This document shows, one piece after another, positions 5,857-37,234 of a stretch of DNA of 64,000 bases. A program made the position numbers and the translations under genes. Within the stretch, counting starts at the first letter, position 1. Every line of letters starts with the position of its first letter. The stretch is taken from assembly GCA_964467035.1 (NCBI GenBank), contig CAYXNX010000004.1, forward strand, positions 89 to 64,088. The letters run 5' to 3'. The DNA comes from Candidatus Woesearchaeota archaeon (lineage in GTDB: Archaea; Nanobdellota; Nanobdellia; Pacearchaeales; GW2011-AR1). The notes under the pieces are model-generated. The model saw only the letters and a program-made list of their open reading frames with translations, was not told where the DNA came from and did not search any database.

Positions 5857-5992
5857 GATTAAAATGTAAAAAAGGATTTAATAGAAAATTGGGGAAAAAT
5901 CCAAGCAATACATTCGAAAGCAAATCTTTTTTACATGGAAAAATAATTTGGACTTCCATAAATAGAACAACATTCTGAGTAATATTTCGTAT

Positions 5993-6136
5993 AACATCGA
6001 AATTTAACGAAGTCGCCGAAGGCGGTTTGGAAAACCGAAGTACAATAAGGTTTCCGTTAAATTCCTGTTATGTCTCCCGACGACTGAAAGGAGGAGAGCG
6101 CAGCGTGGTCGACCGAAGGGAGAAGCGCAGCGTCCC
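5993..6136 (+). repeat. G+C-rich modular junction element E1 (AACATCG left module, CTGTTAT core at 6065-6071, RM-1 right module)
   Basis: Positions 6060-6108 are identical over 49 nt to 32013-32061. The left part parallels 30515-30589. Hairpins cgcc-gaa-ggcg and aaaacc..ggtttc. Confidence 0.75.
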
Positions 6137-6142
6137 TTTAAG

Positions 6143-6376
6143 TTACGAGCCAGCTTTTTGTTTCCTTATTAAAGAATGTATTCCCCAACCTATGATAAAA
6201 CCTATACTTCCGAATAATACGAATAAAAATATTATTGGTAAAAAATCTGTATTGAATTTAGAAAAATCTATGTGTGTATTAGGTAGCCACAACAATGAAG
6301 ATATTCCAATTAATGCTCCAAACCAACTCCCCCACATTTTGAATGGATTGTATAATTTTTTTATTTTATCTGTCAT
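6143..6376 (-). CDS. small membrane protein (cassette cargo)
   Basis: 77 aa with two hydrophobic helices. Flanked by the perfect 11-bp inverted repeat ttacgagccag (6143-6153) / ctggctcgtaa (6425-6435). Confidence 0.45.
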   Translation of the reverse strand: MTDKIKKLYNPFKMWGSWFGALIGISSLLWLPNTHIDFSKFNTDFLPIIFLFVLFGSIGFIIGWGIHSLIRKQKAGS

Positions 6377-6424: not shown

Positions 6425-6590
6425 CTGGCTCGTAATTTCACTTAACGTTCGCGTGTATGAGAAGTTTGCGAAGTAAATTTGGGAAAATTGCGAGCCGAGG
6501 CATTTTTTCTTTTATCCCTTGTTATATGAGGGTGAGCTTGCGAAAGCGCGTAGCGTCTCAGAGGATTTTTTTGTAGAAAAAACCGCAGAG
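6425..6590 (+). repeat. G+C-rich junction element E2 (degenerate core CTTGTTAT at 6518-6525)
   Basis: GNRA-like hairpins (ttgcgaagtaa, cttgcgaaagcg). The right part (gggtgag..gcgtagcg) resembles 33971-34010. Confidence 0.5.
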
Positions 6591-6703
6591 TTGTTTGAAG
6601 GCACTTGTATTAATTTTAAAAATGTCCATTGGGATGGTGGGTTGTTTGATGCCCATTAAATAAGAGAGATTGTCTTTTTGAAAGTTGGAGGGTGGGAAAA
6701 ATT

Positions 6704-7884: not shown

Positions 7885-7934
7885 AATTATTAGGGGTATT
7901 GTGAACATTATAAAAGTTTGCCAGTAACCCAATC

Positions 7935-8037
7935 TCTTATAATCGCTGTTAGTTTCTCTGAGGATTGATTTTTAATGCAATATGTCCGAGCGGAATGAAA
8001 TGGAGCGAAGGAGTTGCCCCGAAGCGCGCATTATGGT
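7935..8037 (+). repeat. G+C-rich junction element E3 (core CTGTTAG at 7946-7952, RM-2 right module)
   Basis: The right part aligns with 30597-30650 (gagga-ttgattttta-R-tgcaa..atgYccgaRg). gaatgaaatggagcga also occurs at 33811-33826. Confidence 0.55.
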
Positions 8038-19000: not shown

Positions 19001-22000
19001 AAACAATTCAGAATTTAATATAACTGATCCTGATGGAAATTTAATTTATAATTCTTTTAATAGTGCTGGAGAAGTTATTTTACAGCTTGATAATTTAACT
19101 CGTGAAGGGACCTATGATATAAGATTATATGCAGATGATTATTCAGGTAATAAGAATGAATCGCAGGATACTTTTGAAGTTACAGACTCTATGTCTCCTT
19201 CTCTTTCAATTTTTAAGAACCAATCAGAAGTTGAATATAACGAAGAGTCTATATATATTAACTGGACTTCTACAGACCTTAATCTAGATACAACTGAATT
19301 TAATGTGACTTATCCTAATGGAACTCTTATTTATGAAAGCACTTCAGAAACAGGAGAAATAAATTTAACTCCAGGGGATATTACAGAACTAGGAGATTAT
19401 GAAATTAATTTATGGGCAAATGATACCGCGGGTAATGAAAATTCAATTAGTGAAATTTTTGAGGTGGTAGATTTAGGATCTCCTGAAGTAAATATTCATT
19501 CTCCAGAAAATAAAACTTATGGTATTGAGGAATTGTTAGTTAATATTACTGCTAATGATGAACATGGGATTGACCAAATTTGGTATAATTGGAATGGAAC
19601 AAATGTAACTTATACAAATCCAACTAACGTAACATTTAATCAAGGATTGAACACTCTAAAAGCATGGACAAATGACACTTCGGGAAATATAGCTAAGGAT
19701 AATGTTACATTTACTATAGATACAGTTCCTCTTAATATAAGTATATTAAACCCTGGAAATAATTCTAAATTCAACTATTCTAATATCATTTTCAATGTTT
19801 CTTCAAACAAGGAAATGGAATGGTGTGGAATATCCATTGATGATGGAGATAATATTACAATGGAATTAAATAATTCGGGGACAGGAGCAAATTATTCAGA
19901 TACTTTCGAGGATAGAGAGCATTACTTTGAAGTAAGTTGTAATGATAGTGTTGGGAACACAGACACCTCTGGGAAATATTTCTTCTTAGTTGATACAATA
20001 AATCCTAATCTTTCAATTTTTAAGAATGAAACAGAAGTTGAATATAACGAAGAGTCTATATATATTAACTGGACTTCTACAGACCTTAATCTAGATACAA
20101 CTGAATTTAATGTGACTTATCCTAATGGAAGTGTAGTTTATTCCTCAGGTAATAGTGATGGGGAATTCGGTTTATCTCCTGCAAATCTAACTTCGGTGGG
20201 ATATTATAATGTTAGCTTGTGGGCCAATGACACAACAGGCAATGAAAATTCAATCAACGATAGCTTTGAAGTTTTTGCAGAAGTTGAACTGAATATATCA
20301 AAAACAAGCAATCTTGAAACAATTGATCCTACTGGAGGAGAGTTTAATTATATAATAAATATCTCAAATATTGGTTATGGGGATGCAAAAAATATAACTT
20401 TAGTTGAAAACTATCCTGAAAATGTAACATTTATTAATTCTACCCCTACGCCTGATTCAGGAAACAATACTTGGAATTTTAGTGTTGTGGAAGAAGGAGA
20501 AAATAAAATCATAGATATAATAGTGGATGCAAATTATGGTATTGAAAATGGAACTGAATTAGTAAACATAGTGAACCTTACCTATCTTGGAAGAGATAAA
20601 ACTGAAAAAAATATTAGTGCTATAGAAATAACAAAAATTATTGATGAAAATCTCCCAAGTGCTTTATTAATATCTCCTTCAAATGCTTCCATATTTAATG
20701 AGTCTAATGTTGAATTCATTTGCTCAGGAATGGATAGTGAATCTGTGCAAAAGATAAAGTTGTATGGTAGTTGGGGAAGCGGATGGGAAGTTAAATCTGA
20801 AGAAGAAGTTAATGGAACCTCTACTTCTGCAACATTTAATGAGGATGTTTTAGATGAGGGGAAATATATTTGGAGTTGCGAGGTTATAGATATTGGCGGA
20901 AATAAAGTTATGGCTTCTCAAAATAGAACATTTACAGTAGATGAAACTCCTCCAACAGTAGATTTAATAGACCCTGTAGGAAATAAAACAGTAGGTGATA
21001 AAAATATAGAGCTTACCTATAATGTTAGTGATAATCTTTCGAATGTTGAATCGTGTGAATTGTTTATTGATAATTCTTCTGTTAAATCAAGCAACAATAT
21101 AAATGAAAATTCTGAAAATAATTTCAATGTAAGTTTAAATAACAGGGTATACGAATGGAAAGTATCTTGTATAGATGAAACAGATAATGAAGGATTTTCT
21201 GATACTGAGACATTTAATGTAGAACTTTTGTTAGATGTTACCTTGAACACCCCAAAAAATAATTCTTATCTTAATGATAGTAATGTAGAATTGAATTGTT
21301 CTGCAGAGTCAGGATATCAACTAAGTAATATGACTATTTTTCTGAAAAATGGGACATGGACTAATAAAACATTTAATGTTTCAGGATATACCAACACTTC
21401 AATCTGGGAGGTAGAAAACCTTTCAGAAGGAGAATCTGAATGGTATTGTTCTGCAAGCAATATTGAAGGAAATGAGTCTACCTCTATTAACAAAAATACC
21501 TTTTATGTTGATTTGACAAATCCTTATATTGAGTTAATTGAACCTGGAAATAATAGTATAAAGAATGAAGAAGAAACCACTTTTAAGTATAATGTGACTG
21601 ATAATATATCCCTTATACCAAGATGTGATTTTTATTTGGATGGAGCAAAAAACGAGAGCTTTTTCAATGTAAGTAAGAATACAGTCCAGGAGTTTGGTAA
21701 GGAGGTATCTGAGGGTAGGCATAACTGGAGTATAAATTGTAATGATACTTCAGGCAGGTTAGGTTCTTCTCCTGTATTTTATTTCAATTATACTGGTGCT
21801 AGGTATACTGTTAATATAACCAATCCTTACACAGATATATATGAATCGCATTTCCATCTCCCTCCAACCGAATCCTGGTTTAGTAATTATACAGAAGCAT
21901 ATTTTAACAAAACCTATGATGTTAATGCTACAATAGATGTATTCAAATCAATATATGGTTGTTCCGCAAGTCTTATTATTAAACCAGACAATTTAACATA

Positions 22001-24734: not shown

Positions 24735-27700
24735 ATGCCAAGGGTAAAAAAAGGGGAATACAATAGAATAAAAAAGAAACTACTTTTAAATATATTTACT
24801 TTGATGTTTTTTATTATTATTTTATCAGGTCTTGTTTTAGCTGGAGGGAATAAGGCTGTTTGGACTTATGTAAACAAACCAAATGGAGACCCTGCTGAAG
24901 GAGCTAATGCAACCTACCGTGTTTTTTTAGAAGGCGATACAGGAGGATTCCCCGAATCTGAACAGTGTTACTGTGTTTCTTATCCAGGTGAAACTGCTTC
25001 TGATGGAAGTATGGTGGATGATCTAAGAAATTTAAAATATGAATCAACTTGTGCTTTTGGAGGAAGAGAAAAAGGAGATAGCTGTGGCTTACATTGGTCA
25101 GAAGGAGATCCAATATGGATTTTAGCAGATGGAAGTACAATGGATCCCCCGTTAGGAACAGGCAATGTTTCAGATACAATAGATGCATTTGGAACACAAA
25201 AGCTAGACAACATAACTCTTAGCTCAGGGCCAAATAATCCTCCGAATATTGACAGTGTTTCTCCTGGTTCGGGAAATTGGTATAATGAGTCTTCTTCCCA
25301 AGGTATTTCAGTAGAGGTTAATACTAATGAAGATTCAACATGTAGATGGAGTAAAAGCCCTATGGACTATTCATCAAAACCATATGATTTTACAGGAACA
25401 CAGTTAACTCATAATTATATCCTGGATTTGTGGCAAGAAAATGCAAATAATATTTACATAACTTGTCAGGATTCAGAAGGAGCTAATAGTGATGAGTATC
25501 ATTTAATACTGAACAAGGATACTACTTCTCCTGTTACTGATGATGATTATTCTTATAATGGGGGTTGGTATAATCAAAATGCAATTATTAATTTGAATGA
25601 GCAAGATTCTGGCTCAGGTGTAGATACTACCTATTATTGCATTGATGACTCAGATACATGTTCTCCTTCTCAAATATATAGTGATTCAGTTAATATCTCT
25701 GATGAGGGAACGAGTTACTTAAGATATTATTCAATAGACAATGTTGGAAATATCCAGGAAACCCAGTCTGTTGAAGTAAAAATAGAAAAAAATGCTCCGA
25801 TTACAGAAACAAACTTTACTAATAATAATACATGGGTGAATACAACCCAGTATGTCTGGCTGAACTATACTGATTCTGGCAATGTTTCAGGAAAAGATTG
25901 GACAAAGTATTGCACAGATGCTGGTTGTGATCCTTCAAGTGGAACAGATTATACAAGCCAGGTAGAATTTTCATCTGATCAAGAAACTAGCTTCAGGTAT
26001 GCAAGTAAAGATAATGCAGGAAATATTGAGACAACAAACGAATTAATTATAAAAATAGATAAAACACCTCCTACTACATCAGACGATTACACTCATGATG
26101 GAAGTTGGTATAACGACAATGCAGATATAACTCTTAATGAAAATTGTGATATTTCAGGATGTGAGTGGACAAAATACTGCACAGGAGAAGAATGTAATCC
26201 AAACACTGATTATACAGGAGAAACTATTGACTTTTCTGAAAATGGAACTCTAAGATATTATTCAAAAGATAATGCAGGCAATATCCAAGATGTTAGAGAG
26301 ACAACCATACTTATAGATAAAAAAGCTCCAGATATAAATGACGATTATGCCTATGATGATTTTTGGATAAATCATTCAACAGGAACAATAACATTAACCC
26401 CGAGTGATGCCGGAGGAAGTGGGTTAGAAAATGATCCTGATGCTGTTAAAATATGTGGGGGAGATGGGTGTGACCCTGAATCAACAAGTGGAATAAATTC
26501 TCCTTATGAATTAGATTATAGTTCTGAACAAGAAACTGTTTATAGATATCAATCATATGATAAAGCAGGAAGTGGCTCAGAAATAGGGAATTTTACAGTA
26601 AAAATAGATAAAACACCTCCAAATACCTATGATGATTATGCCTATAATGATACTTGGAATAATAAAAATGCTTCAATAAATTTAATTGAATCAGACCTTC
26701 CAGATCCTGCAAATTCAGGAATAAATATTACTTATTATTGTACTACAGATAATCTCAATGATTCCTGTGTTCTTGAAACAAAATATATAGGAGAAAAAAT
26801 AAATTTTTTTGAAAGCGGAGTTCTTAGGTACTATTCAAAAGATAATGCAGGCAATACTCAGAATGCTAAAGAAGCAATCATTAAAATTGATAAACAGAAT
26901 ATCTCAATTGCAAATGCCTCTGTTTTAATAGAAAATGGTTCAACTTATTCTACAGAAACAACTCTCCATTTTGATTATTTTGGATTTGAAGATCAAGCGC
27001 AACTTTCAGGAATAGATGGTTATTATTATAATTTTTCAAACAATGAAGGAACAACTTCAGGAAGCTGGGATACAGACCAAAATGGAGTTCTATCCGGAGC
27101 TAGCCAAGGGAATGTGAGTGTTTATGTATGGGGTAAGGATAAAGCAGGGAATATAGGTCCTGCAGTAAGTGATTCTATTATAGTAGATTCTGTCAATCCG
27201 GTTTTTTCTAATTGGAATAATTCTCAAATAAAAATGTCTGATTCAGGACCAATGAATATCAATGTAACTATAACAGATGAAACTTCTGGGGTAAAAGGAA
27301 TGCCTTCTATAAGATATAAATATGGAGAAGATAGTTGGTCTGAATGGAAAAATATAAGTTTGGTTTCCGGACAAAACTACACTTATGATATACCTGACCC
27401 AAATGGATGGTATGATTATTACAATGAAAACGTTTCTTGGCAGGTTAGAGCTAGAGATAATGCAGGAAATGAAGTAGATTCATCTATACATACTTTTCTT
27501 ATAGGCAGTGATGAACCAGCACCCATTGTAATACAAAAGAAACTAGAGTTTTTGAATGAAACAAAAGATTTTGTAAGATATAAAATAACAGATAAGGTAC
27601 ATAATACATTAAACAATACAGATATGTCTGATGTCCAGTTTGGAGATGGAGATATAATTCAGAATATAACACCGCCTGAAGACACATTTGACATAATTAA

Positions 27701-29000
27701 AGGAGAAGTTAAGATAAAAGAGAATAATGTTAAAATAGAGAAAGATTCTAAAAATAAAAACCATACATTTGAAACTGCTTATGCAGAATGGAATGGACAC
27801 ACATACAGATCTGTTATCCATGAAGTCGTTATCCCGGGTTATGGTGGTCCTTTTGATATAGGTGTAGATACTCCTCCTTCAGTCAAGCCTTCTGATGATG
27901 TAAGGGGAGACATAAACCTCATTAATATGAATCTAGATATTGGTAAAGATGTGGAAGTTAATTATTGGATAACTGATACAGAAAATAATGTAATAAACGG
28001 GTTAGAAGGGCAGAAAATGGTTTTTGCGGGGTCATTAGAAAATACATCTACTTTTGGGAAATTGAACTCTCCGTCTATTGAAGGAAATTATAGATTTTGG
28101 GCAGCAGTTACCTGGGCAGATGGGCATAATGCTAGTGCTTTTGATAGTTTTAAGGTAGAATCTGGAGGAGATGAAGGGGGTGGAGGCGGAGGTAGTGCAG
28201 GAGGAATTATAGGGAGTGTGGTGGAAGAACCGGAAAAAGAAACAGAAAAGAAAAAATACTTTGAGTTTGATATAAGTTTACCTCTTAAGAGAATAGAAAG
28301 AAATGAAATATTGTCGATATTAACAGGAATAGAAAATTTAGAACATAATACTTCTAGAGAAGTATCTATTGATTATACTATTGTAGATGAAAATAACAAT
28401 AGTATAATTAATGAAGGGGAAACAAAAACAGTAAATATTTCGAAATGTTTTTCTAAAAATATTTTGATTACCAATCAAACAGAAATAGGAGAATATACTG
28501 TTATAGCAGAATTGAATTATGGAGATTTTTCAACAATTTCAAGGGCAACTTTTGAAATAGTACCTGAAAAGACAAAAAATGTCATTAAAGAAAGTAAAAA
28601 TGTATCCTGTTGTCTTTGGTGTATAATAAGTGTCATATTGCTTTTGATAATAATCATTTATTATTTGTGGAGAATAAACAGGAATAACAACCAGATGGAT
28701 GATTCAGAAATTAAAGAGATTTTAAAAGAATCCATATCTGAAGTAAAATCTAAAATAGATCAAATCAAACCAAATAAACAAATATTAGAGAGGATGTTAT
28801 TAATAGAAAAAGAGGGTAAAAACAGAAAAAATATGAAGAAGACTTTAAAGAAATATATGCAAGAATCCATTTATACAAAACATAATAAAAAAATAGAGAT
28901 CATTTGTTTAATAGCTATAATTGCATTTATAATTTTAGGTTTTATATTATTCTGTTTAAGACCTGAAACATTATGTATTGGAGAAATTATATGGAATTAA
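24735..29000 (+). CDS. large surface protein with repeated Ig-like modules of about 95 aa and C-terminal TM helices
   Basis: N-terminal anchor LLLNIFTLMFFIIILSGLVLAGG. At least 5 modules DDY..(D/N)G.WYN...(Y/K)YC...LRYYS(K/I)DNAGN. A Gly-rich linker and two C-terminal hydrophobic helices. Confidence 0.65.
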   Translation: MPRVKKGEYNRIKKKLLLNIFTLMFFIIILSGLVLAGGNKAVWTYVNKPNGDPAEGANATYRVFLEGDTGGFPESEQCYCVSYPGETASDGSMVDDLRNLKYESTCAFGGREKGDSCGLHWSEGDPIWILADGSTMDPPLGTGNVSDTIDAFGTQKLDNITLSSGPNNPPNIDSVSPGSGNWYNESSSQGISVEVNTNEDSTCRWSKSPMDYSSKPYDFTGTQLTHNYILDLWQENANNIYITCQDSEGANSDEYHLILNKDTTSPVTDDDYSYNGGWYNQNAIINLNEQDSGSGVDTTYYCIDDSDTCSPSQIYSDSVNISDEGTSYLRYYSIDNVGNIQETQSVEVKIEKNAPITETNFTNNNTWVNTTQYVWLNYTDSGNVSGKDWTKYCTDAGCDPSSGTDYTSQVEFSSDQETSFRYASKDNAGNIETTNELIIKIDKTPPTTSDDYTHDGSWYNDNADITLNENCDISGCEWTKYCTGEECNPNTDYTGETIDFSENGTLRYYSKDNAGNIQDVRETTILIDKKAPDINDDYAYDDFWINHSTGTITLTPSDAGGSGLENDPDAVKICGGDGCDPESTSGINSPYELDYSSEQETVYRYQSYDKAGSGSEIGNFTVKIDKTPPNTYDDYAYNDTWNNKNASINLIESDLPDPANSGINITYYCTTDNLNDSCVLETKYIGEKINFFESGVLRYYSKDNAGNTQNAKEAIIKIDKQNISIANASVLIENGSTYSTETTLHFDYFGFEDQAQLSGIDGYYYNFSNNEGTTSGSWDTDQNGVLSGASQGNVSVYVWGKDKAGNIGPAVSDSIIVDSVNPVFSNWNNSQIKMSDSGPMNINVTITDETSGVKGMPSIRYKYGEDSWSEWKNISLVSGQNYTYDIPDPNGWYDYYNENVSWQVRARDNAGNEVDSSIHTFLIGSDEPAPIVIQKKLEFLNETKDFVRYKITDKVHNTLNNTDMSDVQFGDGDIIQNITPPEDTFDIIKGEVKIKENNVKIEKDSKNKNHTFETAYAEWNGHTYRSVIHEVVIPGYGGPFDIGVDTPPSVKPSDDVRGDINLINMNLDIGKDVEVNYWITDTENNVINGLEGQKMVFAGSLENTSTFGKLNSPSIEGNYRFWAAVTWADGHNASAFDSFKVESGGDEGGGGGGSAGGIIGSVVEEPEKETEKKKYFEFDISLPLKRIERNEILSILTGIENLEHNTSREVSIDYTIVDENNNSIINEGETKTVNISKCFSKNILITNQTEIGEYTVIAELNYGDFSTISRATFEIVPEKTKNVIKESKNVSCCLWCIISVILLLIIIIYYLWRINRNNNQMDDSEIKEILKESISEVKSKIDQIKPNKQILERMLLIEKEGKNRKNMKKTLKKYMQESIYTKHNKKIEIICLIAIIAFIILGFILFCLRPETLCIGEIIWN

Positions 29001-29443: not shown

Positions 29444-29469
29444 GTGCACAGAAAATTGATTTTATTATA

Positions 29470-29540
29470 TTAAGCCCTGTTAAATCCGCCGACGAACGAA
29501 GTGAGGAGAATGACATACTCCCTGGCCTAAAGGCAGGGGT
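29470..29540 (+). repeat. junction element E4 (core CTGTTAA at 29477-29483, RM-1-like cgacgaacgaagtgaggaga, bulged hairpin 29518-29539)
   Basis: aagccCTGTTAAATCC is shared with 33626-33641. The RM-1 motif is shared with 34978-34997. Confidence 0.6.
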
Positions 29541-30170
29541 ATCTCTTTAAGAAGTTACAAAGTTGTTTGTCTTAAATCTTTAAATTCAAAATTCCATTCT
29601 TCTTGGGAATACTTAATGTATTGTTCAATTACTTCAGCAGTTACTGCTCCAACACTTCGGAAAAATTTTCCAGGGCTCCATAAATGAGGTTTAACTGTTC
29701 CGTCTCTACTAAAAAAAGCATACCATTGAGTACACTTTTTGAAAAAAATTCTCGCGCTTCCTCCTTTCAAAAATTGTAAAGTCATACTCACCGAAATTGT
29801 CGACGGAACTTGTGCAAAACAATGCACATGGTCTGGCATAACTTTTAACTCAATAATTTCTATTTTATGTTTTTTTGCAACTTGTTTGATTGCATCTTCA
29901 CAAATTTTCCGAGGGTATTCTTTTTTGAAAACCGATACATTGTATTTTGGTCTCCAAACAAAGTGATAAGCACTTTGTCCTATTGCGTGTTTTGTATGTT
30001 TTAATTCCATTTTTCTCCATAGCTTTCGCGCACGAAAGCAAACATTTATTTAGTTTGAGAAAGTTTCAACTAGGCAATTTTATGGCGGTTTAACCGCCTT
30101 CTTTCTCGTAATAAATAAGTTTTTTAGAAATAAATACATTTGCACCTCGTCTTAAAAGACGAGGCAGCAG
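29500..30170 (-). mobile_element. IS200-like element (tnpA only); ends approximate
   Basis: Y1 transposase ORF flanked by subterminal hairpins: 29518-29539 downstream, and 30022-30039, 30084-30098 and 30145-30164 upstream. No tnpB/iscB. Confidence 0.5.
29555..30010 (-). CDS. tnpA: IS200/IS605-family Y1 (HUH) transposase TnpA
   Basis: 151 aa. YHFVWRPKY start, HUH motif PDHVHCF, LKGGSARIF, LWSPGKFFRSVG and the catalytic-Tyr region VIEQYIKYS. Confidence 0.85.
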   Translation of the reverse strand: MELKHTKHAIGQSAYHFVWRPKYNVSVFKKEYPRKICEDAIKQVAKKHKIEIIELKVMPDHVHCFAQVPSTISVSMTLQFLKGGSARIFFKKCTQWYAFFSRDGTVKPHLWSPGKFFRSVGAVTAEVIEQYIKYSQEEWNFEFKDLRQTTL

Positions 30171-30241
30171 ATATATTGTAGCGCAGCGGAGTGCGGAGTG
30201 AAACGGAGCAAGTTTTTCCTTTGGCGTTTTGAATACAAAAT

Positions 30242-30249
30242 TTTAAATA
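30242..30249 (+). promoter_or_regulatory. TATA-box-like element about 30 nt upstream of ATG 30272 (leaderless layout)
   Basis: tttaaata. The same spacing is seen at four other cassette genes. Confidence 0.4.
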
Positions 30250-30271
30250 TAACTTAGAATTCTTTAATACC

Positions 30272-30487
30272 ATGGCATTATTAACAGAAACTTCTGCAAA
30301 ATTATTGGAGGAAATGTGCGAAGATAGAACGGGAAAATCATTACAAGAATTTTCAGAACAAGATTTTCCAAGAGATTACTCTCCCGAATTAGAACAGAAA
30401 AGAGCAGAAGTTTCAAAATACAGATTAACCAAACCATCTACAACGCCATGGTATAATCCTCAAAGAATTCTAAGACATTTTAGATAG
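30272..30487 (+). CDS. hypothetical small protein
   Basis: 71-aa ORF with a TATA at -30. Terminates in TAG. No recognisable family. Confidence 0.4.
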   Translation: MALLTETSAKLLEEMCEDRTGKSLQEFSEQDFPRDYSPELEQKRAEVSKYRLTKPSTTPWYNPQRILRHFR

Positions 30488-30514
30488 TTTATAGCCAAAT
30501 GAAAAATTTCGTTG

Positions 30515-30660
30515 AACATCGCGATTAAACGAAGTCGCCTAAGGCGATTTGGGTGGAGAAACCTGCAAGGTTTCGGAACCGTTAAATTCCTGTTAGTTTC
30601 GTCCGAATATTTAGAGGACTTGATTTTTAGTGCAACGATGCCGAAGGCAAAAAATCAAAG
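30515..30660 (+). repeat. junction element E5 (AACATCG left module, core CTGTTAG at 30590-30596, RM-2 right module with hairpin 30620-30660)
   Basis: The left part parallels E1 and 33533-33630. The hairpin is repeated in inverse orientation at 56190-56229. Confidence 0.7.
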
Positions 30661-30796
30661 TTTTTGGATTACTGATAAATTTCGACCGCAGAGAGTATAT
30701 ATGTCCAAAGGAAGAGAGAGTAGGGTGTCTTGTTTTGGTTCTTTTCTAAAAGAACATTTAGGGTCGTCATTTGTCATTTTCTGGGCTACCAAAAGA

Positions 30797-30804
30797 TTTA
30801 TATA
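30797..30804 (+). promoter_or_regulatory. TATA-box-like element about 30 nt upstream of ATG 30829
   Basis: tttatata. Overlaps the left inverted-repeat arm at 30788-30800. Confidence 0.4.
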
Positions 30805-30828
30805 GTAATTGTATTATTGATTATACAT

Positions 30829-31419
30829 ATGTATAAAAAGATAAGATTTACAGAAAATACCTTGCAAGTATTATCTTTATTTACGAACGATTTTAATAGA
30901 GAATATTATATTCGAGAAGTTGAAAAATTACTAAAAATTAGTCCGAGAACATCACAGCTTATTCTTGAGGATTTGGAAAATAAAGGAGTGATAGAATCAA
31001 AAACTAAGGGCAAGATTAAAACATTTAAATTAAATCCAAGCGAGTTCACTAAAAGGTATCTTGCTTTCGTAGAACAATATAAAGCGATTGCATTTTTAGA
31101 AAAGAAACTTTTGATTAAAGAAATAATAGAAAAGATCATTCCCAATATTAAAGGAATCGGCATAATTTTTGGAAGTTATGTTAAAGGATTAGAAAAAGAA
31201 GGTTCTGATTTGGATATTTTTATTGTAGGAAGTTATAACAATGACGAAATAAAAAAAATTTCAAAAAATTTAGGTATAGAGATAAGTATTAAATGTTATC
31301 CTCTGAAAACATTTGAGAAGAATCTAAAAAAAGATATCCTTCTGAAAGAAGTTTTAAAAAATCATGTAGTTTTTCTAAATGTAGAACAATTTATACAGAA
31401 GGTCTTCAAAAATGGATAA
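30829..31419 (+). CDS. nucleotidyltransferase (MNT-like) with N-terminal winged helix
   Basis: GSYVKGLEKEGSDLDIFIVGS matches the minimal nucleotidyltransferase signature. N-terminal wHTH-like segment. Overlaps the HEPN gene by 8 nt. Confidence 0.75.
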   Translation: MYKKIRFTENTLQVLSLFTNDFNREYYIREVEKLLKISPRTSQLILEDLENKGVIESKTKGKIKTFKLNPSEFTKRYLAFVEQYKAIAFLEKKLLIKEIIEKIIPNIKGIGIIFGSYVKGLEKEGSDLDIFIVGSYNNDEIKKISKNLGIEISIKCYPLKTFEKNLKKDILLKEVLKNHVVFLNVEQFIQKVFKNG

Positions 31420-31894
31420 AATAAAATGGTGTGCTGAGAAAAAAGGAGGATTAAGTTTAGTTGAGCCAAACTCTGATCTCGCAAATGCTTATATCAAGAA
31501 AGCGGAAGAAGCACTTGAATCAATGAGGGTAAACATAATTAAAGATTGGAAAATCTCAACAGCATACTATACAATCTATTTCTCATTATACGCTGTCTTG
31601 ATGAAATTGGGTATAAAATGTAAGATTCATTCTTGTACTATTGAATTTGCAAAAAGATTCCTCGAAGAATATTTTGAAGAAGCAGAGTTAAATTTTACTG
31701 AGGACTCATTAAAAGCTAGAGTCGATTCCCAATATTATATAGACCGAACTGTTCCAGATGAGCAATATAACAAAATGATTCAAAAAGCTCCTGAATTTCT
31801 AGTTAAGTGCAAATCTGTTATTATCAAATTAAACGAGAAAAAGGTTAATGAGATAAGAGATAAATTTCAAAAGGAAATAAGCAAGAGGAGATAA
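31412..31894 (+). CDS. HEPN-domain protein (partner of the MNT)
   Basis: 160 aa, helical. N-terminal AYIKKAEEALESMR is typical of HEPN. Translationally coupled to the upstream nucleotidyltransferase. Confidence 0.7.
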   Translation: MDKIKWCAEKKGGLSLVEPNSDLANAYIKKAEEALESMRVNIIKDWKISTAYYTIYFSLYAVLMKLGIKCKIHSCTIEFAKRFLEEYFEEAELNFTEDSLKARVDSQYYIDRTVPDEQYNKMIQKAPEFLVKCKSVIIKLNEKKVNEIRDKFQKEISKRR

Positions 31895-31956
31895 TTAAAT
31901 GAATACTAAACAGATAATTAACAAGAAAGCTGAATATTGGAAAAAGTGATTACCAG

Positions 31957-32141
31957 TAAATCTTTTGGTTTCAAATTATATTTCTATTTAGCCCGAATTC
32001 TGAATTAGACATAATTCCTGTTATGTCTCCCGACGACTGAAAGGAGGAGAGCGCAGCGTGGCAAAATCCGAAGGATTTTGAGTTCAGAATTCGGGCGTAT
32101 TTGATATTAACTTCAGAGTAGTAAAAGAACCGAAAGATTTA
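31957..32141 (+). repeat. junction element E6: nested-stem structure with core CTGTTAT at 32018-32024
   Basis: Stems 31957-31970/32128-32141 (13 of 14), 31991-32004/32083-32096 (14/14), 32007-32014/32021-32028 (8/8) and 32062-32069/32073-32080 (8/8). Confidence 0.8.
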
Positions 32142-32145
32142 TAAA
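32138..32145 (+). promoter_or_regulatory. TATA-box-like element 30 nt upstream of ATG 32168
   Basis: tttataaa. Overlaps the inverted-repeat arm at 32128-32141. Confidence 0.4.
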
Positions 32146-32167
32146 GATTAGACTTATTCTAAAATAC

Positions 32168-32461
32168 ATGAAAAAAGAAATAATCCCAAGGTATAATATT
32201 GAAGTTCCAACACTAGAGGAACAGCTAAAAGAAGAAGGATTCAAAAGAGTAGCTGAACTTGAAGCAAGAGCTGATGGAAGAGTGGAACTTCCAATTGATT
32301 TAGTCCCAAATACAAAGGGCGGAAAAAATATTTTTGGTAAACCTTACGCGGAATTGAGAATTGTAAATGCGAGAGAAGTTAGCCCATTTGAAAAGAGCGA
32401 TAGAAAATATTTTGTTTACCAAAAAATAGAAGAAAGCCCATATGTATTTGAACAAGAATAA
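32168..32461 (+). CDS. hypothetical protein (cassette cargo)
   Basis: 97-aa ORF with a TATA at -30. Bracketed by perfect inverted repeats. Confidence 0.5.
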   Translation: MKKEIIPRYNIEVPTLEEQLKEEGFKRVAELEARADGRVELPIDLVPNTKGGKNIFGKPYAELRIVNAREVSPFEKSDRKYFVYQKIEESPYVFEQE

Positions 32462-32600
32462 ATCTTTCGGTTTCTATCTTTTAGCCCGAATTCTGATTAG
32501 ACATAATCGCTGTTATACGCCCCGACGAGTGAAACGAGGAGAGCCTGCAAGGCGTGGTCGGAGCGAAGCGACGAAGAAGTGGTGTGAGTTTTCGTTAAAT
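32459..32600 (+). repeat. junction element E7 (core CTGTTAT at 32510-32516)
   Basis: The left part gcccgaattctga-ttagacataat equals the E6 left part. Positions 32539-32570 are identical over 32 nt to 33666-33697. Confidence 0.75.
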
Positions 32601-32603
32601 GAT

Positions 32604-33062
32604 TTAGAGTAGCCTTCGTTTTATTTTTATTAATAAAAAAGTTAATACTATATAAAAAAATCCGATGCAAATTATATAGTAATTTGGAAATGTTTTAAAA
32701 AAAAGAAAAAATCCAAAAGCGTAAGCTATTCCTAAAAAGATTCCTGAAGATGTCCTTAAAATATTATTGCCTTTGGATTTTTTAAAAGCAGATATTGACC
32801 AATCAATTAAAGCAAATATGGGGAAAAAAGCAATTACAAAATAATATAAATTTTTATTTGGTATTTGAAAAGTTAATAACACTATTCCTAAGAGAATTCC
32901 TAAATATACTCCAAGACAACGAGAACAAAAAGCAATTTGTTTATTTTTAATTTTAAATAAATAGCATTTATAATAATCTTCTTTTTTATGATGAGAAAGA
33001 ATATACTTAGAGACTTCACTTAATCCCCTTTTTAATTCTTTTAGTAAATAATTTAGTCCCAT
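32604..33062 (-). CDS. DUF2085-like membrane protein
   Basis: 152 aa with CSRCLGVYLG followed by 4 hydrophobic helices. Confidence 0.5.
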   Translation of the reverse strand: MGLNYLLKELKRGLSEVSKYILSHHKKEDYYKCYLFKIKNKQIAFCSRCLGVYLGILLGIVLLTFQIPNKNLYYFVIAFFPIFALIDWSISAFKKSKGNNILRTSSGIFLGIAYAFGFFLFFKTFPNYYIICIGFFYIVLTFLLIKIKRRLL

Positions 33063-33093
33063 ATTATTAACTAAATATAAGTAGAATAAAAAT

Positions 33094-33432
33094 TTATCCG
33101 TATTTTGCTTTAAATGCAGAATCGGTCATTGTTAAATAAATTATTCCTTCAATTAAACCAATTATTGCAGGAATGAAAGTCCAAAAAAAACACAAATACA
33201 AAATTCCCATTCCAATATCTTCTAAATAAAATTTGTGTGCACCGATTCCGCCAAGTAAAATTCCTAAAAGGCCTGCGGCAACTTTGTTTTTTTCCCTTCC
33301 AGAAAATGAATGATGACTTCTTTGTCTAACGCCACATTTTGGGCATATTTCTGCTTCTTTTTTTATAACTTCTCCACAAGAAGAGCAATAAGCTTCATCG
33401 GATTTTTTTTCTTTCTTGTCTTTTTGAACCAT
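33094..33432 (-). CDS. zinc-ribbon plus TM2-domain membrane protein
   Basis: CSSCG..x..CPKCG zinc ribbon, then AGLLGILLGGIGAHKFYL, which is typical of the TM2 domain. Confidence 0.7.
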   Translation of the reverse strand: MVQKDKKEKKSDEAYCSSCGEVIKKEAEICPKCGVRQRSHHSFSGREKNKVAAGLLGILLGGIGAHKFYLEDIGMGILYLCFFWTFIPAIIGLIEGIIYLTMTDSAFKAKYG

Positions 33433-33532
33433 ATTTATATTTAAAGAAATATAGAACTTTATAAACTTTTTTATTTTTTAAGGGGGCTACTCTTCTAACG
33501 AAGATGTCTAGAAAATTCACACTATTGCAATT

Positions 33533-33720
33533 AACATCGCGATTAAGGAAAGTTAATTTCTCCCGCGAGTGTAACGAGCTGGCTGAGAAATTAATTTAGG
33601 AAAATCCTGCAAGGATTTTCTGTTTAAGCCCTGTTAAATCCTCTGAACAAAATCTTTGATTTTGTGAGAGCCTGCAAGGCGTGGTCGGAGCGAAGCGGAG
33701 GGCGTAAGTCCCAATCTCCA
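33533..33720 (+). repeat. junction element E8 (AACATCG left module, core CTGTTAA at 33631-33637)
   Basis: Hairpins 33553-33562/33585-33594 (10 bp) and 33599-33620 (gaaaatcc-tgcaa-ggattttc). Shares a 32-nt block with E7. Confidence 0.7.
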
Positions 33721-33832
33721 TTATATTCTCAAACTTCCAAAAAATAGAATCTTTGATTCGTCATTTTTTGAGGATGTTTGGCGAGCATCTTTTCGATGCG
33801 AAGAGTCGCGAAATGAAATGGAGCGATTGGAT

Positions 33833-33960
33833 ATAAGGGGTGTTAATCGACCCCAAATACTTGGAGAGGCACGAGTTCTTCAGATATTTGTTGGAAGTGA
33901 GTTTTGCGTTGGGCGGGGTCTTGATAATAGAAGGGTTGTGGGGAGCAAAATTTTGATTAA
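33833..33960 (+). repeat. L repeat copy 1 (noncoding element of about 125 nt)
   Basis: About 90% identical by eye to 34840-34964 and 36134-36259. Indels between copies break any reading frame. Confidence 0.9.
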
Positions 33961-34015
33961 CCCCTGTTATACAGGGGGTGAGGAGCGTAGCGACGAAAGC
34001 GTAGCGTTCCATTGC
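33961..34015 (+). repeat. junction element E9 (core CTGTTAT at 33964-33970 inside the hairpin cccctgt-tat-acagggg)
   Basis: Followed by gtgaggagcgtagcgacgaaagcgtagcg, a gcgtagcg..cgaaag..gcgtagcg hairpin-like tract. Confidence 0.6.
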
Positions 34016-34031
34016 GTCAAGAAATTGGGCA

Positions 34032-34775
34032 TTACTTCTTCTTAAACTTGAACAAAATAAAAGTTGGCAAAGTTGTTGTTAATCTATATTTTTCAGAATC
34101 ATATTTTTTAGATATTTTAGTTGGCTCAGCATCTTTATAATCGATTAATTCAAATCCATTATTTATTCCTGCTTTAATCAGTGTTTCATAGGTAAAATTA
34201 CAAAGTTCCACTTTTCCTAAACTTCCTAAATCATTTGGTTTTGGGGTTTCATCAAAATAATTGCCAAAAATTATTCTTTTTCTATAAGATTGTTTTTTTA
34301 CACCAATCATGTGTTCCTTAGTTTGATTGATTAGATTAAAAATTGGGTGGCCTGTTGAAAAACAAAAAATCCCTTTTTTCTTTAAAACACGATTTACTTC
34401 TTTGAATAATTTGTTAATGTCTTTGATGTAATGTATTGCTAAACTTGAATAAACAATATCAAAAGTTGAATCTTCATGTTTTAACTTTTTACTCATATCT
34501 CCAACATAGAAATTAGAATCAGGAATTTTTTGTTGATTTGCAAATTTGACTAATTCTTTACTAATGTCAAATCCAACCAATTTTTTATAATTTTGCTTAG
34601 ATAATTTTTGAGCATGATCCCCAAAACCACAACCCATATCTAGAATAACTTTGTTTTTTACATCACCAATGATTTTAATTAAAGCAGGAACTTCAATATC
34701 TCGATTATAATCAAATCGCGTTTTATCTTTTCTTCGCTCTAAATAATGCTGAGCCAATTTATCATATTCTGCCAT
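34032..34775 (-). CDS. class I SAM-dependent methyltransferase
   Basis: VILDMGCGFGDH (motif I), DIVYSSLAIHY and KKGIFCFS motifs. Confidence 0.85.
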   Translation of the reverse strand: MAEYDKLAQHYLERRKDKTRFDYNRDIEVPALIKIIGDVKNKVILDMGCGFGDHAQKLSKQNYKKLVGFDISKELVKFANQQKIPDSNFYVGDMSKKLKHEDSTFDIVYSSLAIHYIKDINKLFKEVNRVLKKKGIFCFSTGHPIFNLINQTKEHMIGVKKQSYRKRIIFGNYFDETPKPNDLGSLGKVELCNFTYETLIKAGINNGFELIDYKDAEPTKISKKYDSEKYRLTTTLPTFILFKFKKK

Positions 34776-34839
34776 ATATATAGACTACTTTGCCAACAAT
34801 ATAAATCTTTTTGTTCTGAGCCCAATTTCTTGATTTCGT

Positions 34840-34964
34840 ATAAGGGTGTTAATCGACCCCAAATACTTGGAGAGGCACGAGTTTTTCAGATATTTGTTTG
34901 AGTGAGTTTTGCATTGGGGGTGTCTTGACAATAGAAGGGTTGTGGGAAGCAAAATTTTGATTAA
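34840..34964 (+). repeat. L repeat copy 2
   Basis: See copy 1. Immediately followed by tcgCTGTTAT (core at 34968-34974). Confidence 0.9.
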
Positions 34965-35042
34965 TCGCTGTTATCTGTCCCGAACGAAGTGAGGAGAGTG
35001 CAACGTGCCCGAGCCGAAGGCGAAAGAGTTTTTGAAAATGCC
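34965..35042 (+). repeat. junction element E10 (core plus RM-1-like cgaacgaagtgaggagag; gagccgaaggc hairpin)
   Basis: Read directly. Ends in the inverted-repeat arm at 35029-35042. Confidence 0.6.
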
Positions 35043-35105
35043 GTTCATCAAGGACGAAGTCCCATTAGTTTAAAGAATCAAGGTGTAAACTCAAGAAGCA
35101 CAATG

Positions 35106-35113
35106 TTTATAAT
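35106..35113 (+). promoter_or_regulatory. TATA-box-like element 30 nt upstream of ATG 35136
   Basis: tttataat. Confidence 0.4.
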
Positions 35114-35135
35114 AATTCATAATTTCCACTAATTT

Positions 35136-35801
35136 ATGGCTTCAAATTTAGAGAATCTTCATCAGTGGGCATCTTCAAAATATGAGAATTATCTATCTAT
35201 GATAGCTATTGGTTCAATTGCGGTGGGAGATGCTTGGATTGAGGGAAGAAGCGATCATGACATTCTTCTTGTTTTTGAAGAATATCCTCAAAGCATTGCT
35301 TCAGATTTAGAAGGATATCTTCAAAATTCTGAATTTGATGAAACTTACCTATTCACACCATTACCAAAATCTGTGTTAATAGGCCCAAAAAATCATAGTC
35401 ATGATTTCTCAAACAAATTCAGAAGTAAGACTCTCTATGGAATTGATTTAATCCCTGAAGTTAAATTACCAACAGATGAAGTGATTAAATCATTGTATGA
35501 AAGTGGTTTAGAGAGTGTTACGAGAAGAATGTCGCATAGAATTGCCCACGCTTCTTTATGGACTGATGAAAAAGCCAGAAATGTTTTTTGGAAATTATTC
35601 AAGCATTCATTTATGAATTTAGCAATAAGAGCTTATGCAACATCTGGAAATTATCCAAGAAAAAGGGAAGATGTTGTAAAACATTATGATTCTGATGAAT
35701 TAAAAGTCGTATTAGAAACATTGAATACAATTAATGAACAACCAAGAGAAAATATTGTTTCTGCTGCGAAAGGATTGGTTGGCTATATTAAGCGACTTTG
35801 A
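35136..35801 (+). CDS. putative nucleotidyltransferase-fold protein
   Basis: GSIAVGDAWIEGRSDHDILLVF matches the G-S-x(9-11)-D-x-D nucleotidyltransferase pattern. The rest is helical. Confidence 0.5.
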   Translation: MASNLENLHQWASSKYENYLSMIAIGSIAVGDAWIEGRSDHDILLVFEEYPQSIASDLEGYLQNSEFDETYLFTPLPKSVLIGPKNHSHDFSNKFRSKTLYGIDLIPEVKLPTDEVIKSLYESGLESVTRRMSHRIAHASLWTDEKARNVFWKLFKHSFMNLAIRAYATSGNYPRKREDVVKHYDSDELKVVLETLNTINEQPRENIVSAAKGLVGYIKRL

Positions 35802-35821
35802 GTTTACCTCATTCTATTTTA

Positions 35822-35915
35822 GGCATTTTCAAAAATTGGATTTAATGCCTGTTATAATCTCCCGTTAGTGACGAGGGATAGCTGCAAGCGGTTTTTTGCG
35901 AAGCAAAAAAATCCT
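35822..35915 (+). repeat. junction element E11 (core CTGTTAT at 35849-35855)
   Basis: Hairpins gctgcaagc and ttttttgcgaagcaaaaaa. Begins with the inverted-repeat arm at 35822-35835. Confidence 0.6.
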
Positions 35916-35935
35916 GAAGAGTTGAATTTAGAAAC

Positions 35936-36082
35936 TTACTTCTTTTTTAATGAGAAGAAAGCGAAGAATGCAAAAAATCCGAAGAATCCGAAAAGCTCGT
36001 AATTTTGAGTAGGTATGCCTAGCAATCCTAATAATCCAAAGATACCAAAATATCCAGCTTTCCATTTATTATCATCTTTCAT
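35936..36082 (-). CDS. small hydrophobic protein (48 aa; below the ORF-track cutoff)
   Basis: My translation is MKDDNKWKAGYFGIFGLLGLLGIPTQNYELFGFFGFFAFFAFFSLKKK. Bracketed by the perfect 14-bp inverted repeat 35922-35935/36114-36127. Confidence 0.4.
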   Translation of the reverse strand: MKDDNKWKAGYFGIFGLLGLLGIPTQNYELFGFFGFFAFFAFFSLKKK

Positions 36083-36133
36083 AATATTTCTGAGGTTCTA
36101 TTTGTTTATTAAAGTTTCTAAATTCAATTGATT

Positions 36134-36259
36134 ATAAGGGGTGTTAATCGACTTCGAATACTTGGAGAGGCACGAGTTCTTCAGATATTTGTTTGAGTGA
36201 GTTTTGCATTGGGGGTGTCTTGACAATAGAGGGGTTGTGGGGAGCAAAATTTTGATTAA
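36134..36259 (+). repeat. L repeat copy 3 (adjacent to the recombinase gene; not followed by CTGTTA)
   Basis: Ends gattaaCAG, so TTAACAG (the reverse complement of CTGTTAA) sits at 36256-36262. Confidence 0.9.
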
Positions 36260-36304
36260 CAGACTTTTAACGAACTCAGTTAATATTTGATAGTTAAAAG
36301 TCTG
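36260..36304. repeat. perfect 12-bp inverted repeat cagacttttaac-N21-gttaaaagtctg upstream of the recombinase gene
   Basis: Arms at 36260-36271 and 36293-36304, read directly. Confidence 0.85.
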
Positions 36305-36367
36305 AAAGAAGCAAAATTAGGTTCAGGGTCTAGAAAAAATTACTATTGTTGAATTGTAAAATATATT

Positions 36368-36394: not shown

Positions 36395-37234
36395 ATGGTT
36401 TATATTCCTTATGACTGGGAAACTTGTTTAAGGAGAAAATGTAAAAGATATAGGTATTCTGACAAAAATGTGAAAAATTATAGTTACTGGATTCAAAGAT
36501 TTTTGAAATGGAATGGGAAGGAATTGAAGTATATTTCAAAAAAAGATGTTAGTGCTTTTTTGCAAAAATTAGATAATCAAAATCTTTCAGGAAATACCTT
36601 AAATCAATGTCATATGACGCTTAAATTCTTATTTGAAGATGTTATGGATAAAAAGATGTAGATAAATATTAAGTATGCAAAAGTGCCTAAAAGAATTCAA
36701 AAAGTTTTGAAAAAAGAAGAAATAAAATTATTAATTAAAAACATTAAAAATTCTAAACACAAAATTATGATTGCTTTGATGTACTCAGCAGGTTTAAGAG
36801 TAAGTGAGTTAATTAATTTAAAAGTTGAAGATTTAGAATTAAAAAATAGATATGGATTTGTGAGAAATGGAAAGGAAGGAAAAGATAGATTATTTATTAT
36901 TTCTGAAAGACTGGCACCTGTTTTAAAACAAATTATTTTAGATAATAATTTGGGAAAAGAAGATTATTTATTTTTAAGTAGAAGAAATAAAAAATATAGT
37001 GTAAGAACAATACAGAAAATTGTTAAGGATGCAAGTAAAAAAGCTGGTCTTGATTTTAAAGAAATTCACCCACATACATTAAGACATAGTTTTGCAACTC
37101 ATTTAATTGAACAAGGAGATTGTGTTGGAGATGTGCAAGCAATGTTAGGACATAAATCTCAGGAAACTTCTTTAAACTATATCCATTCATCAGGGAAAAT
37201 GTTAAATATAAAAAGTCCTTTTGACAGATTATAA
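36395..37234 (+). pseudogene. Xer-like tyrosine recombinase interrupted by one in-frame TAG (36659-36661)
   Basis: The N-terminal SAM-like domain (36395-36658) and the catalytic domain (36662-37234) are in the same frame. Catalytic signature: R in GLRVSEL, HPHTLRH, LGH and Y in LNYIH. No IntI-type insertion. Confidence 0.75.

Follow-up and report, generated by a model that had tools for sequence, protein, structure and literature searches.

How did the genes of a small island in an archaeal contig come to stand side by side? The window analysed here is a stretch of 64,000 nt from a Candidatus Woesearchaeota archaeon (contig CAYXNX010000004.1, positions 89 to 64,088), and it is archaeal by its diphthine synthase and aCPSF1, both of which exceed curated cut-offs. 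From 29.4 to 36.3 kb it holds small gene units separated by G+C-rich non-coding elements, which the initial annotation had read as a possibly undescribed site-specific cassette system. We consider it reasonably probable that this island is a cassette array at integron-like sites, with a mechanism that we infer to be, probably, Xer-driven.

The junctions share a short core. The motif TAANNNCTGTTA (TAA-N3-CTGTTA) occurs eight times in the window, every time on the + strand (starts at 7940, 29471, 32012, 32504, 33625, 33958, 34962 and 35843), whereas 1.09 ± 1.06 copies are expected from dinucleotide shuffles of the window and none of 100 shuffles reached eight. With a spacer of N3-4, a scan of the window returned ten cores on the + strand and one on the − strand. 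All cores listed in the initial annotation are present (29477, 30590, 32018, 32510, 33631, 33964, 34968, 35849, 6065, 7946 and a degenerate CTTGTTA at 6518), and four junctions can be added, namely GTG|TTA at 33843, 34849 and 36144 and a terminal site at 36249-36276. The + orientation claimed for all elements holds for the 15 window sites and stays constant while gene strands are mixed; it does not extend to one 46-nt hairpin copy on the − strand (56184-56229). The G+C content of the junctions peaks at 0.40-0.465 against a background of 0.21-0.30, as had been noted. Their description as hairpin-dense elements applies in part, as only some of them fold better than shuffled sequence.

Aligned at TG|TTA, every junction shows the same order, namely a left arm of 11 nt with (T)TAA at its inner end, then 6 nt, then TTA. 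The previously noted core is the exchange point, TG|TTA, of a tyrosine-recombinase site. By analogy, TG|TTA would correspond to the G|TTRRRY R' box of integron attC, and (T)TAA to the inner end of the left binding arm. The site takes two forms. The first, carried by most array junctions, is an attC-like left module (L-module) of ~100 nt that reads ATT-N5-TAAC (R''), 3-4 unpaired nt, a 10-12-nt L'' box, GAAGTT and hairpin 1, followed by ATTTGGG, hairpin 2, L', 1-2 nt and G|TTA (R'). The second is a short dif-like site composed of ATT-N5-TAA, 6 nt and TTA, and many junctions are entirely without an L box. The exchange point is often followed by a right module, TTAnnnnnCCC GACGA-NN-GAA-NN-GAGGAGAGC and further sequence.

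These elements recur in more than 180 metagenome and genome loci. The right-module pattern identified at least 120 metagenome contigs and one viral contig, and a family hidden Markov model built from the metagenome copies detects 253 elements in 130 loci. In 30 of the 31 loci with three or more elements, all elements lie on one strand, and the median spacing is 982 nt. An open reading frame (ORF) on the − strand ends just to the right of the site in 107 of 134 modules. The array genes mostly point away from the recombinase, each with its site behind it, which is the integron layout. Across the exchange point, 30 nt are shared without a mismatch by 53 species-level genomes labelled as many candidate phyla radiation (CPR) lineages, Woese-, Pace- and Nanoarchaeota, Altiarchaeota and others; this CPR/DPANN spread rests on genome-bin labels, in which binning errors are possible for individual records. 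The arrays adjoin recombinases of two different clades.

Conservation and covariation within the family agree with this anatomy. In 171 unique copies, the left arm ATT-N5-TAAC has A80 T85 T80 at its outer end and T88 A100 A100 C100 at its inner end (percentages). The TAAC/GTTA pair is invariant in all of 50 diverse L-modules, and ten of the 11 L-box pairs in this set show compensatory changes. In the same 50 modules, 85% of cells pair, compared with 66.5% after shuffling and 32-47% when the partners are slid; the covariation score is 0.468, compared with 0.166 for shuffles (none of 500 reached the observed value) and at most 0.107 for slid partners. Some copies read GCCTAAC...GTTAGGC. Among the four L-modules of the window, one keeps a pairing L box and three are chimeric.

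The hairpin loops in both left and right modules are mostly GNA triloops, found exclusively on the + strand. Within the window junctions, 14 GNA-triloop mini-hairpins lie on the + strand and none on the − strand, with 2.3 expected. Loops of the type d(C-GNA-G) are unusually stable in DNA. Since these loops occur on the + strand only, their distribution suggests that the + strand would be the strand that folds.

The short sites resemble archaeal dif. Near-palindromic junctions, with two 11-nt arms and a 6-nt spacer, include ATTAGACATAA TTCCTG TTATGTCTCCC in the window and ATTGAACTTAA TCGCTG TTAAGTTCGTT in locus L006, while the right arms at most sites do not mirror the left arms. The experimentally used dif of Pyrococcus abyssi is ATTGGATATAA TCGGCC TTATATCTAAA (PMC2958812), and its left arm is found exactly at window position 33826-33836 and in L032. 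A plain 11-6-11 dif reading of the core was considered and found too narrow, as the "left arm + spacer" of metagenome copies is often the L' half of the attC-like hairpin.

Evidence for exchange at these sites comes from shared cassettes. Two pairs of independent loci, L105/L178 and L179/L192, have 1.2-1.35 kb in common starting at G|TTA, with unrelated left sides. This loss of homology at TG|TTA in cassettes common to independent loci, together with the co-orientation of the arrays, supports the earlier view of the junctions as sites of reciprocal site-specific recombination. The idea of a single fixed breakpoint had to be abandoned, as each attC-like module has two or more exchange points and homology also breaks at linkers inside the right module. 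The L198 junction, ATTTCGTTTAA-CCCTTG-TTATACGAGGG, connects a cassette also found in L093 to one also found in L128; the L-module is wholly missing there, and a full left module stands at the corresponding positions in L093 and L128. We therefore take the left end of the L-module, TAA|C, as a probable second exchange point, so that the L-module would behave as a separable ORF-less unit.

The mosaic junctions of the window show the same behaviour on a smaller scale, and homology between window junction pairs ends no more than 8 nt from TG|TTA. The left sides of the junctions at 32021 and 32513, described earlier as shared, match over 17 nt up to a 1-nt indel, and their right sides diverge after 4 nt. 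The 49-nt exact block common to 6060-6108 and 32013-32061 is real, and to the left of 6068 and 30593 the sequences agree over 14 nt. The reported repeated left units are also real; they are three ORF-less units (at 33843, 34849 and 36144) of 122-124 nt that are 92-95% identical to one another and have different right sides. For the 32-nt exact block (32539-32570 and 33666-33697), the match stands and the proposed breakpoint at the core does not: the block lies within the right module, 26-32 nt from the core, and marks a different breakpoint.

A tyrosine recombinase gene of Xer/IntI type stands just beyond the island (36395..37234, +; 279 codons, assigned by PDB and NCBIfam comparison). In the PDB it matches P. 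abyssi XerA best (4a8e, E 5e-38), and its best NCBIfam model is recomb_XerA_Arch at 195.9 bits, below the cut-off of 220. For array-adjacent homologues, this model gives 233.8 bits in L188, above the cut-off, and 210-215 bits in L155 and L159. The gene is interrupted by TAG at codon 89. Since TAG is a normal stop codon in the window, where it terminates five other long ORFs, the gene is probably a recent pseudogene; the same TAG is present in the Logan assembly. Seventeen loci have a recombinase beside the array, and 15 of these agree in its side and strand; a tyrosine recombinase thus stands at a fixed array end, in keeping with its place at the island border in the initial annotation.

Between island and recombinase lies a terminal, or anchor, site (36249..36310, +), ATTTTGATTAA CAGACT TTTAACGAACT, set in a hairpin with a 12-bp stem (fold z −3.7). 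The site stops 86 nt short of the recombinase start codon, and its ATT-N5-TAAC arm lies ~130-140 nt upstream of that start. In 14 loci an anchor arm of this kind precedes the recombinase start by ~90-140 nt, and in one recombinase clade two TTATACGAAGT repeats come after the arm.

The array-adjacent recombinases and the window protein have 268-285 aa (~270). Their TIGR02249 scores of 163-220 bits (199-220 in array-adjacent recombinases; cut-off 265) fall in two stretches that leave profile positions 178-237 unmatched, and residues 182-245 of IntI4 (2a3v) are likewise unmatched by the array-adjacent proteins. Judged from these alignments, the array-adjacent recombinases are not IntI by the accepted definition, as the IntI-specific extra domain appears to be absent. 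No recombinase with this domain was found in any fetched locus.

We propose the following mechanism. Each gene cassette or ORF-less unit would be joined to the next at a tyrosine-recombinase site, with exchange at TG|TTA. The enzyme would likely be the Xer/IntI-type recombinase at the array end, just past the anchor site, and new cassettes would enter at the anchor, as they do at attI or dif. Exchange between sites would reshuffle left and right halves and thereby produce mosaic junctions. The ~100-nt attC-like module may fold as a single strand, while the short site may act as a duplex, like archaeal dif. More tentatively, and with somewhat less confidence than we have in the array itself, the system may represent a "proto-integron", in which a Xer-type enzyme without the IntI domain captures cassettes at a dif-like anchor, uses both duplex and folded sites, and lets cassettes and sites circulate between CPR and DPANN.

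Several observations weigh against this proposal. About 20% of L-modules family-wide have a non-pairing L''/L', which a strict folded-attC mechanism would not tolerate, and the L''/L' covariation could instead come from palindromic duplex arms that were split by integration. The fold of most right modules is no better than that of shuffles. Array geometry and gene orientation favour exchange at R'', while most shared-cassette breakpoints lie at R', and the two exchange points are not reconciled with one simple mechanism. No recombination product, circular junction or empty site was seen, and the exact window proteins occur in one sample only (SRR11308339). In an exact look-up, six window proteins were recovered at most as fragments from this one Logan sample, and one protein was not on record; contig ends from SRR11308339 were considered as population variants and gave no firm inference, as the breaks are partly explained by repeats. 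The recombinase gene of the window is itself broken. Eight loci with XerA homologues, found with the window recombinase and fetched separately, have no arrays, and the five whose upstream region was read (L081-L084 and L086) have no anchor, so array adjacency is no general property of XerA. Finally, in a rough neighbour-joining tree, the array-adjacent recombinases do not form one clade; they fall into several groups.

The main rival to a Xer-driven array is a remnant of a classical integron, that is, a cluster of attC sites lacking integron-integrases (CALIN), in which ordinary attC sites are moved in trans by a canonical IntI and the Xer gene is merely a frequent neighbour, for example where arrays lie near dif. 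Integrons and CALINs, including cassette arrays without an integrase, have been reported in Archaea, where the IntIs carry the extra domain (Ghaly et al. 2022, PMC9668308). CALINs are the commonest integron form reported there, and IntegronFinder requires the extra domain to call IntI (PMC9668308). The attC layout of the L-module, its canonical GCCTAAC...GTTAGGC copies, the array form, the cassette sizes and the toxin-antitoxin and methyltransferase cargo would all suit such a remnant. However, the recombinase keeps its position and strand in 15 of 17 loci with the anchor at a conserved distance, and none of the fetched loci encodes an extra-domain recombinase. Neither an 11-nt ATT...TAA arm nor a short duplex site is a feature of attC, and the precise loss or exchange of whole L-modules is unexpected from IntI chemistry. 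We regard this explanation as unlikely.

It is much less probable that the elements are a structured non-coding RNA family, or structures at transcript 3' ends, and that the mosaic is a by-product. Four strongly covarying helices between conserved linkers such as GAAGTT and ATTTGGG, together with the strand-specific loop bias, are what such a family might display. However, most flanking genes lie antisense to the strand that folds, and site orientation in the window is independent of gene strand. Homology on the kilobase scale that stops at TG|TTA, and the adjacency of a recombinase, would be left unexplained. The Rfam scan proposed in the initial annotation also found no known RNA family that accounts for the elements: with E values up to 10 allowed, nothing in Rfam 15 reached its gathering score for the island or the canonical copies, and no match there had an E value below ~1. 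A self-cleaving ribozyme or other known RNA was rejected as the Rfam searches were empty, and a group II intron domain V, suggested by GAACCGTAT, was rejected for want of an Rfam hit and for its wrong hairpin geometry.

The Y1 transposase at the left end of the island was also considered. It is encoded by tnpA (29555-30010) within an IS200-type insertion sequence (IS) of ~670 nt (29510..30181, −), flanked by GAGGAGA and GCGCAGCGGAGTG. These flanks rejoin to the usual right-module sequence ...GGAGGAGAGCGCAGCGTGG. TnpA matches Pfam Y1_Tnp (E 5.6e-28) and NCBIfam transpos_IS200 (102 bits, cut-off 55). The IS ends, CCCTGGCCTAAAGGCAGGGG and CACCTCGTCTTAAAAGACGAGG, are unlike the junction modules, and the end hairpins are kept in L005, L006 and L032. 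The initial annotation had proposed this TnpA as a boundary enzyme of the island; it belongs instead to an ordinary IS200 with its own end hairpins inside one right module, and it was rejected as the cassette enzyme because the IS has its own ends and is itself an insertion. The wider idea, that the elements are palindrome-associated or repetitive extragenic palindromic (REP)-like repeats mobilised as single-stranded DNA by a Y1 transposase (by an IS200/IS605 or REP-associated tyrosine transposase mechanism), can draw on a TnpA within the island, co-oriented hairpins and TnpA relatives that often stand at contig ends in DPANN bins, but it is the least credible of the explanations, as the IS keeps different end hairpins in three other loci and interrupts a right module, TnpA scores 36 bits against the REP-associated model REP_Tyr_transpos (cut-off 80), most arrays elsewhere have no TnpA, and cores occur at the closest TnpA loci only, not at the IS ends.

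The same IS200 family was observed inside G+C-rich junction modules elsewhere (L005 at ~4480-4540 and ~3830-3900; L032 at ~2050-2110), with flanks ...GGAGAGCGAA | IS | GAGCGGAGG..., and it may target structured junction modules. In several DPANN bins (L066-L070, L074, L075 and other TnpA loci), many contigs end within the same IS200-type tnpA, which points to high-copy IS200 families as a cause of fragmentation in these DPANN assemblies.

Returning to the cassette array, its units can be followed through the island, all on the + strand by site orientation. The first junction (29463..29509, nhmmer), TATTATATTAA GCCCTG|TTAAATCCGCC, is followed by the start of a right module that the IS200 cuts; a Logan contig with the same sequence begins exactly at 29480, at CTG|TTA. 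An attC-like L-module with a chimeric L box (30506..30603; nhmmer 30498-30595) ends in TTCCTG|TTAGTTT with its exchange point at 30593, and its fold prediction gives inner hairpins only. It precedes a cassette (30593..32020) that consists of a right module, an MNT-type nucleotidyltransferase and a HEPN protein (Pfam). This MNT-HEPN pair is 88% identical in L005 and 86% identical in L192, both in other contexts, and in L005 it is preceded by a different core and right module. The pair was rejected as a mapper of the exchange point, as homology stops 70-125 nt inside the cores.

A complete palindromic site element of 107 nt follows (31991..32097). Its outer stem is GCCCGAATTCTGAA/TTCAGAATTCGGGC, and the dif-like core ATTAGACATAA TTCCTG TTATGTCTCCC lies inside. 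As single-stranded DNA it is predicted to fold at −29.5 kcal/mol (z −7.3), and the core arms are inverted repeats at 8 of 11 positions. The next cassette (32021..32512) holds a 97-aa ORF in a conserved frame made of a 130-nt 5' part and a 55-nt 3' part. The frame ends are 84-98% identical in L106, L121, L170, L188, L108, L222 and L104, with 210-500 nt between them. The two frame parts (32021-32150 and 32456-32512) carry an inverted repeat, CCGAAAGATTT / AAATCTTTCGG, directly around the 97-aa ORF, and in L188 a different ORF occupies the frame. The ORF of this cassette may be exchangeable within its cassette, as far as sequence comparison can tell.

The cassette at 32513..33633 carries a right module and genes for DUF2085 and TM2/zinc-ribbon proteins on the − strand (Pfam, nhmmer), and its L-module (33536-33640) is chimeric by nhmmer and fold. 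An ORF-less unit composed of a right module only (33634..33842) ends in ATTGGATATAA GGGGTG|TTAATCG. It is followed by the first of the three repeated ORF-less units (33843..33966, 124 nt), whose edges TTAATCGA and TTGATTAA are inverted repeats and which is 92% identical to the second. A cassette with an S-adenosylmethionine (SAM)-dependent methyltransferase on the − strand (33967..34848; Pfam Methyltransf_11, E 3e-22) separates it from this second copy (34849..34970, repeat comparison). The cassette at 34971..35851 comprises a right module and a 221-aa ORF without a family match in Pfam or NCBIfam, and it corresponds to a separate 955-nt Logan contig. The last cassette (35852..36143) has a right module and, in the ORF list, a small − strand ORF; this right module is 84-95% identical in L119, L171 and L243. 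The third copy of the ORF-less unit (36144..36265, repeat comparison) leads to the anchor. The earlier gene annotations were borne out throughout, namely Y1_Tnp, the nucleotidyltransferase and HEPN pair, the SAM methyltransferase, DUF2085, TM2, the tyrosine recombinase with an in-frame TAG, and dph5.

A smaller array upstream (5.97-8.03 kb) is organised like the island, and we consider it, too, a probable product of site-specific recombination. Its first element is an attC-like L-module (5988..6073, +) with R'' TATAAC, L'' GAAATTTAACG, two inner hairpins, L' CGTTAAATTC and R' G|TTATGT. It is included in the L-module alignment, scores 97.5 bits in nhmmer together with its right module, and as single-stranded DNA it is predicted to form the R/L-box hairpin (−11.8 kcal/mol, z −2.1). 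The right module (6068..6150, +) reads TTATGTCTCCC GACGACTGAAAGGAGGAGAGC GCAGC GTGG... and fits the pattern that found the metagenome contigs. The second junction (6437..6600, +; nhmmer 49.6 bits) has a chimeric L-module whose L''/L' do not pair and for which the R/L-box fold is not predicted (z −0.02). Its exchange point, CTTG|TTATAT, lies at 6522, and the right module behind it is of the GAGGGTGAGC type, which is also found in L128 and L198. The last junction (7932..8035, +) is a short (type 2) site, ATCTCTTATAA TCGCTG TTAGTTTCTCT, with a right module that is 87-92% identical over ~40 nt in L252, L205, L194 and L189.

The system in this window looks inactive and decaying, because the recombinase carries a nonsense codon, three of the four attC-like modules are chimeric and an IS200 has entered one junction.

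Right-module sequence also occurs away from the arrays. The isolated − strand copy at 56184-56229 is exactly identical to the long right-module hairpin at 30621-30666 (GATTTTTAGTGCAACGATGCCGAAGGCAAAAAATC) and stands alone between two genes, without a core; this hairpin may spread or act independently. In the commonest element type (canonical copies, L092-L265), conservation extends ~300 nt past the right module, for example at L103 4030-4170. An A/T palindrome (TTCAAAAAATATTTTTCG) lies within this extension, as does, on the opposite strand, a Shine-Dalgarno-like AAGGAG ahead of an 11-codon ORF (MKFTPNPSFIF); the extension looks like a conserved non-coding or leader-peptide cassette in bins of many phyla. 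The canonical element had no match in plasmid and phage collections.

Other features of the window lie outside the arrays. Immediately upstream of the island are two very large ORFs, 10785-24692 (4635 aa) and 24735-29000 (1421 aa). Both contain many internal repeats, 270-300 nt long, and probably encode repetitive surface proteins; the 1421-aa ORF has no match in Pfam. At 51338-51578, a 71-nt unit is repeated in tandem three to four times, with 98-99% identity between copies; the repeats directly follow a 99-nt segment (51207-51305) that matches the bacterial small signal recognition particle RNA model at 40.2 against a gathering score of 40, which is odd for an archaeal window.

Integron integrases are thought to derive from Xer-type recombinases, and we know of no intermediate system between the two. 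If the proposed reading is true, these arrays would stand, as a living system, midway between chromosome-dimer resolution and integrons, and would carry genes directly from one domain to the other, between CPR and DPANN. If it is confirmed, the origin of integrons would become testable with a few purified proteins and oligonucleotides. Such systems would count as orphan arrays in current integron detection, for which the IntI domain is a requirement. That the 30-nt site is identical in 53 genomes suggests that the smallest, host-dependent cells in groundwater and sediment communities draw on a common pool of cassettes. The window, as an inactive and decaying copy, has its value as an entry point to the family.

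How, then, do these arrays compare with known systems? With integrons and CALINs they share co-oriented cassettes of ~0.5-1.5 kb, the R''(..AAC)/R'(G|TT...) pair, a covarying L box and a variable inner structure. They also share a divergent tyrosine recombinase with an attI-like site at one end, toxin-antitoxin and methyltransferase cargo, ORF-less cassettes and near-identical sites in bins of different domains. Unlike integrons, they have a recombinase without the IntI-specific domain, an 11-nt Xer-like left arm and many short duplex junctions without an L box. An extra structured right module is present, whole attC-like modules are gained, lost or swapped, and the inner part consists of two hairpins joined by the conserved linkers GAAGTT and ATTTGGG.

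The archaeal XerA/dif system of P. abyssi (Cortez et al. 2010, PMC2958812) is similar in that, among known proteins, the recombinase resembles XerA (4a8e) most. The sites are also alike, with two 11-nt arms, a 6-nt spacer and inner ends ..ATAA / TTAT.., and their left arms are identical at up to 11 of 11 positions. However, many sites per region are found here instead of one at the terminus, their right arms are not mirror images, and they flank accessory genes. In Thermococcales, unlike in these arrays, dif is not adjacent to xerA. For XerS and XerH, the site adjoins the recombinase gene, as in the arrays described here.

Integrative mobile elements exploiting Xer (IMEX; reviewed in PMC5357621), such as CTX-phi, use the host recombinases, and their single-stranded genome folds to make the site. 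The arrays resemble them as elements without a recombinase of their own that are integrated in tandem at a dif-like site, and their inverted half-sites, ~90 nt apart, can fold duplex-like, as is predicted here for the L-module. The units here, however, are single-gene cassettes in place of phages or genomic islands, their sites come in dozens of variants, and the system is known from sequence. In pdif modules the sites alternate in orientation around each module, whereas all sites here are direct repeats (30 of 31 arrays; 15 of 15 window sites on the + strand) and the hosts are archaea and CPR-labelled bins. The pdif modules of Acinetobacter plasmids (PMC6449649) are, like the units here, small accessory modules bounded by Xer-type sites in varied contexts.

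The term "undescribed" used in the initial annotation applies to some features only. In their architecture the sites follow integron attC and archaeal dif, and archaeal CALINs have been reported (PMC9668308). Literature searches by sequence and by topic returned nothing on cassette arrays whose associated recombinase lacks the IntI domain, nothing on such arrays in CPR, and no paper with these sequences. Four features were not found described: the association with a recombinase that lacks the IntI domain, a dif-like arm of 11 nt, the additional right module, and the CPR/DPANN spread suggested by the labels.

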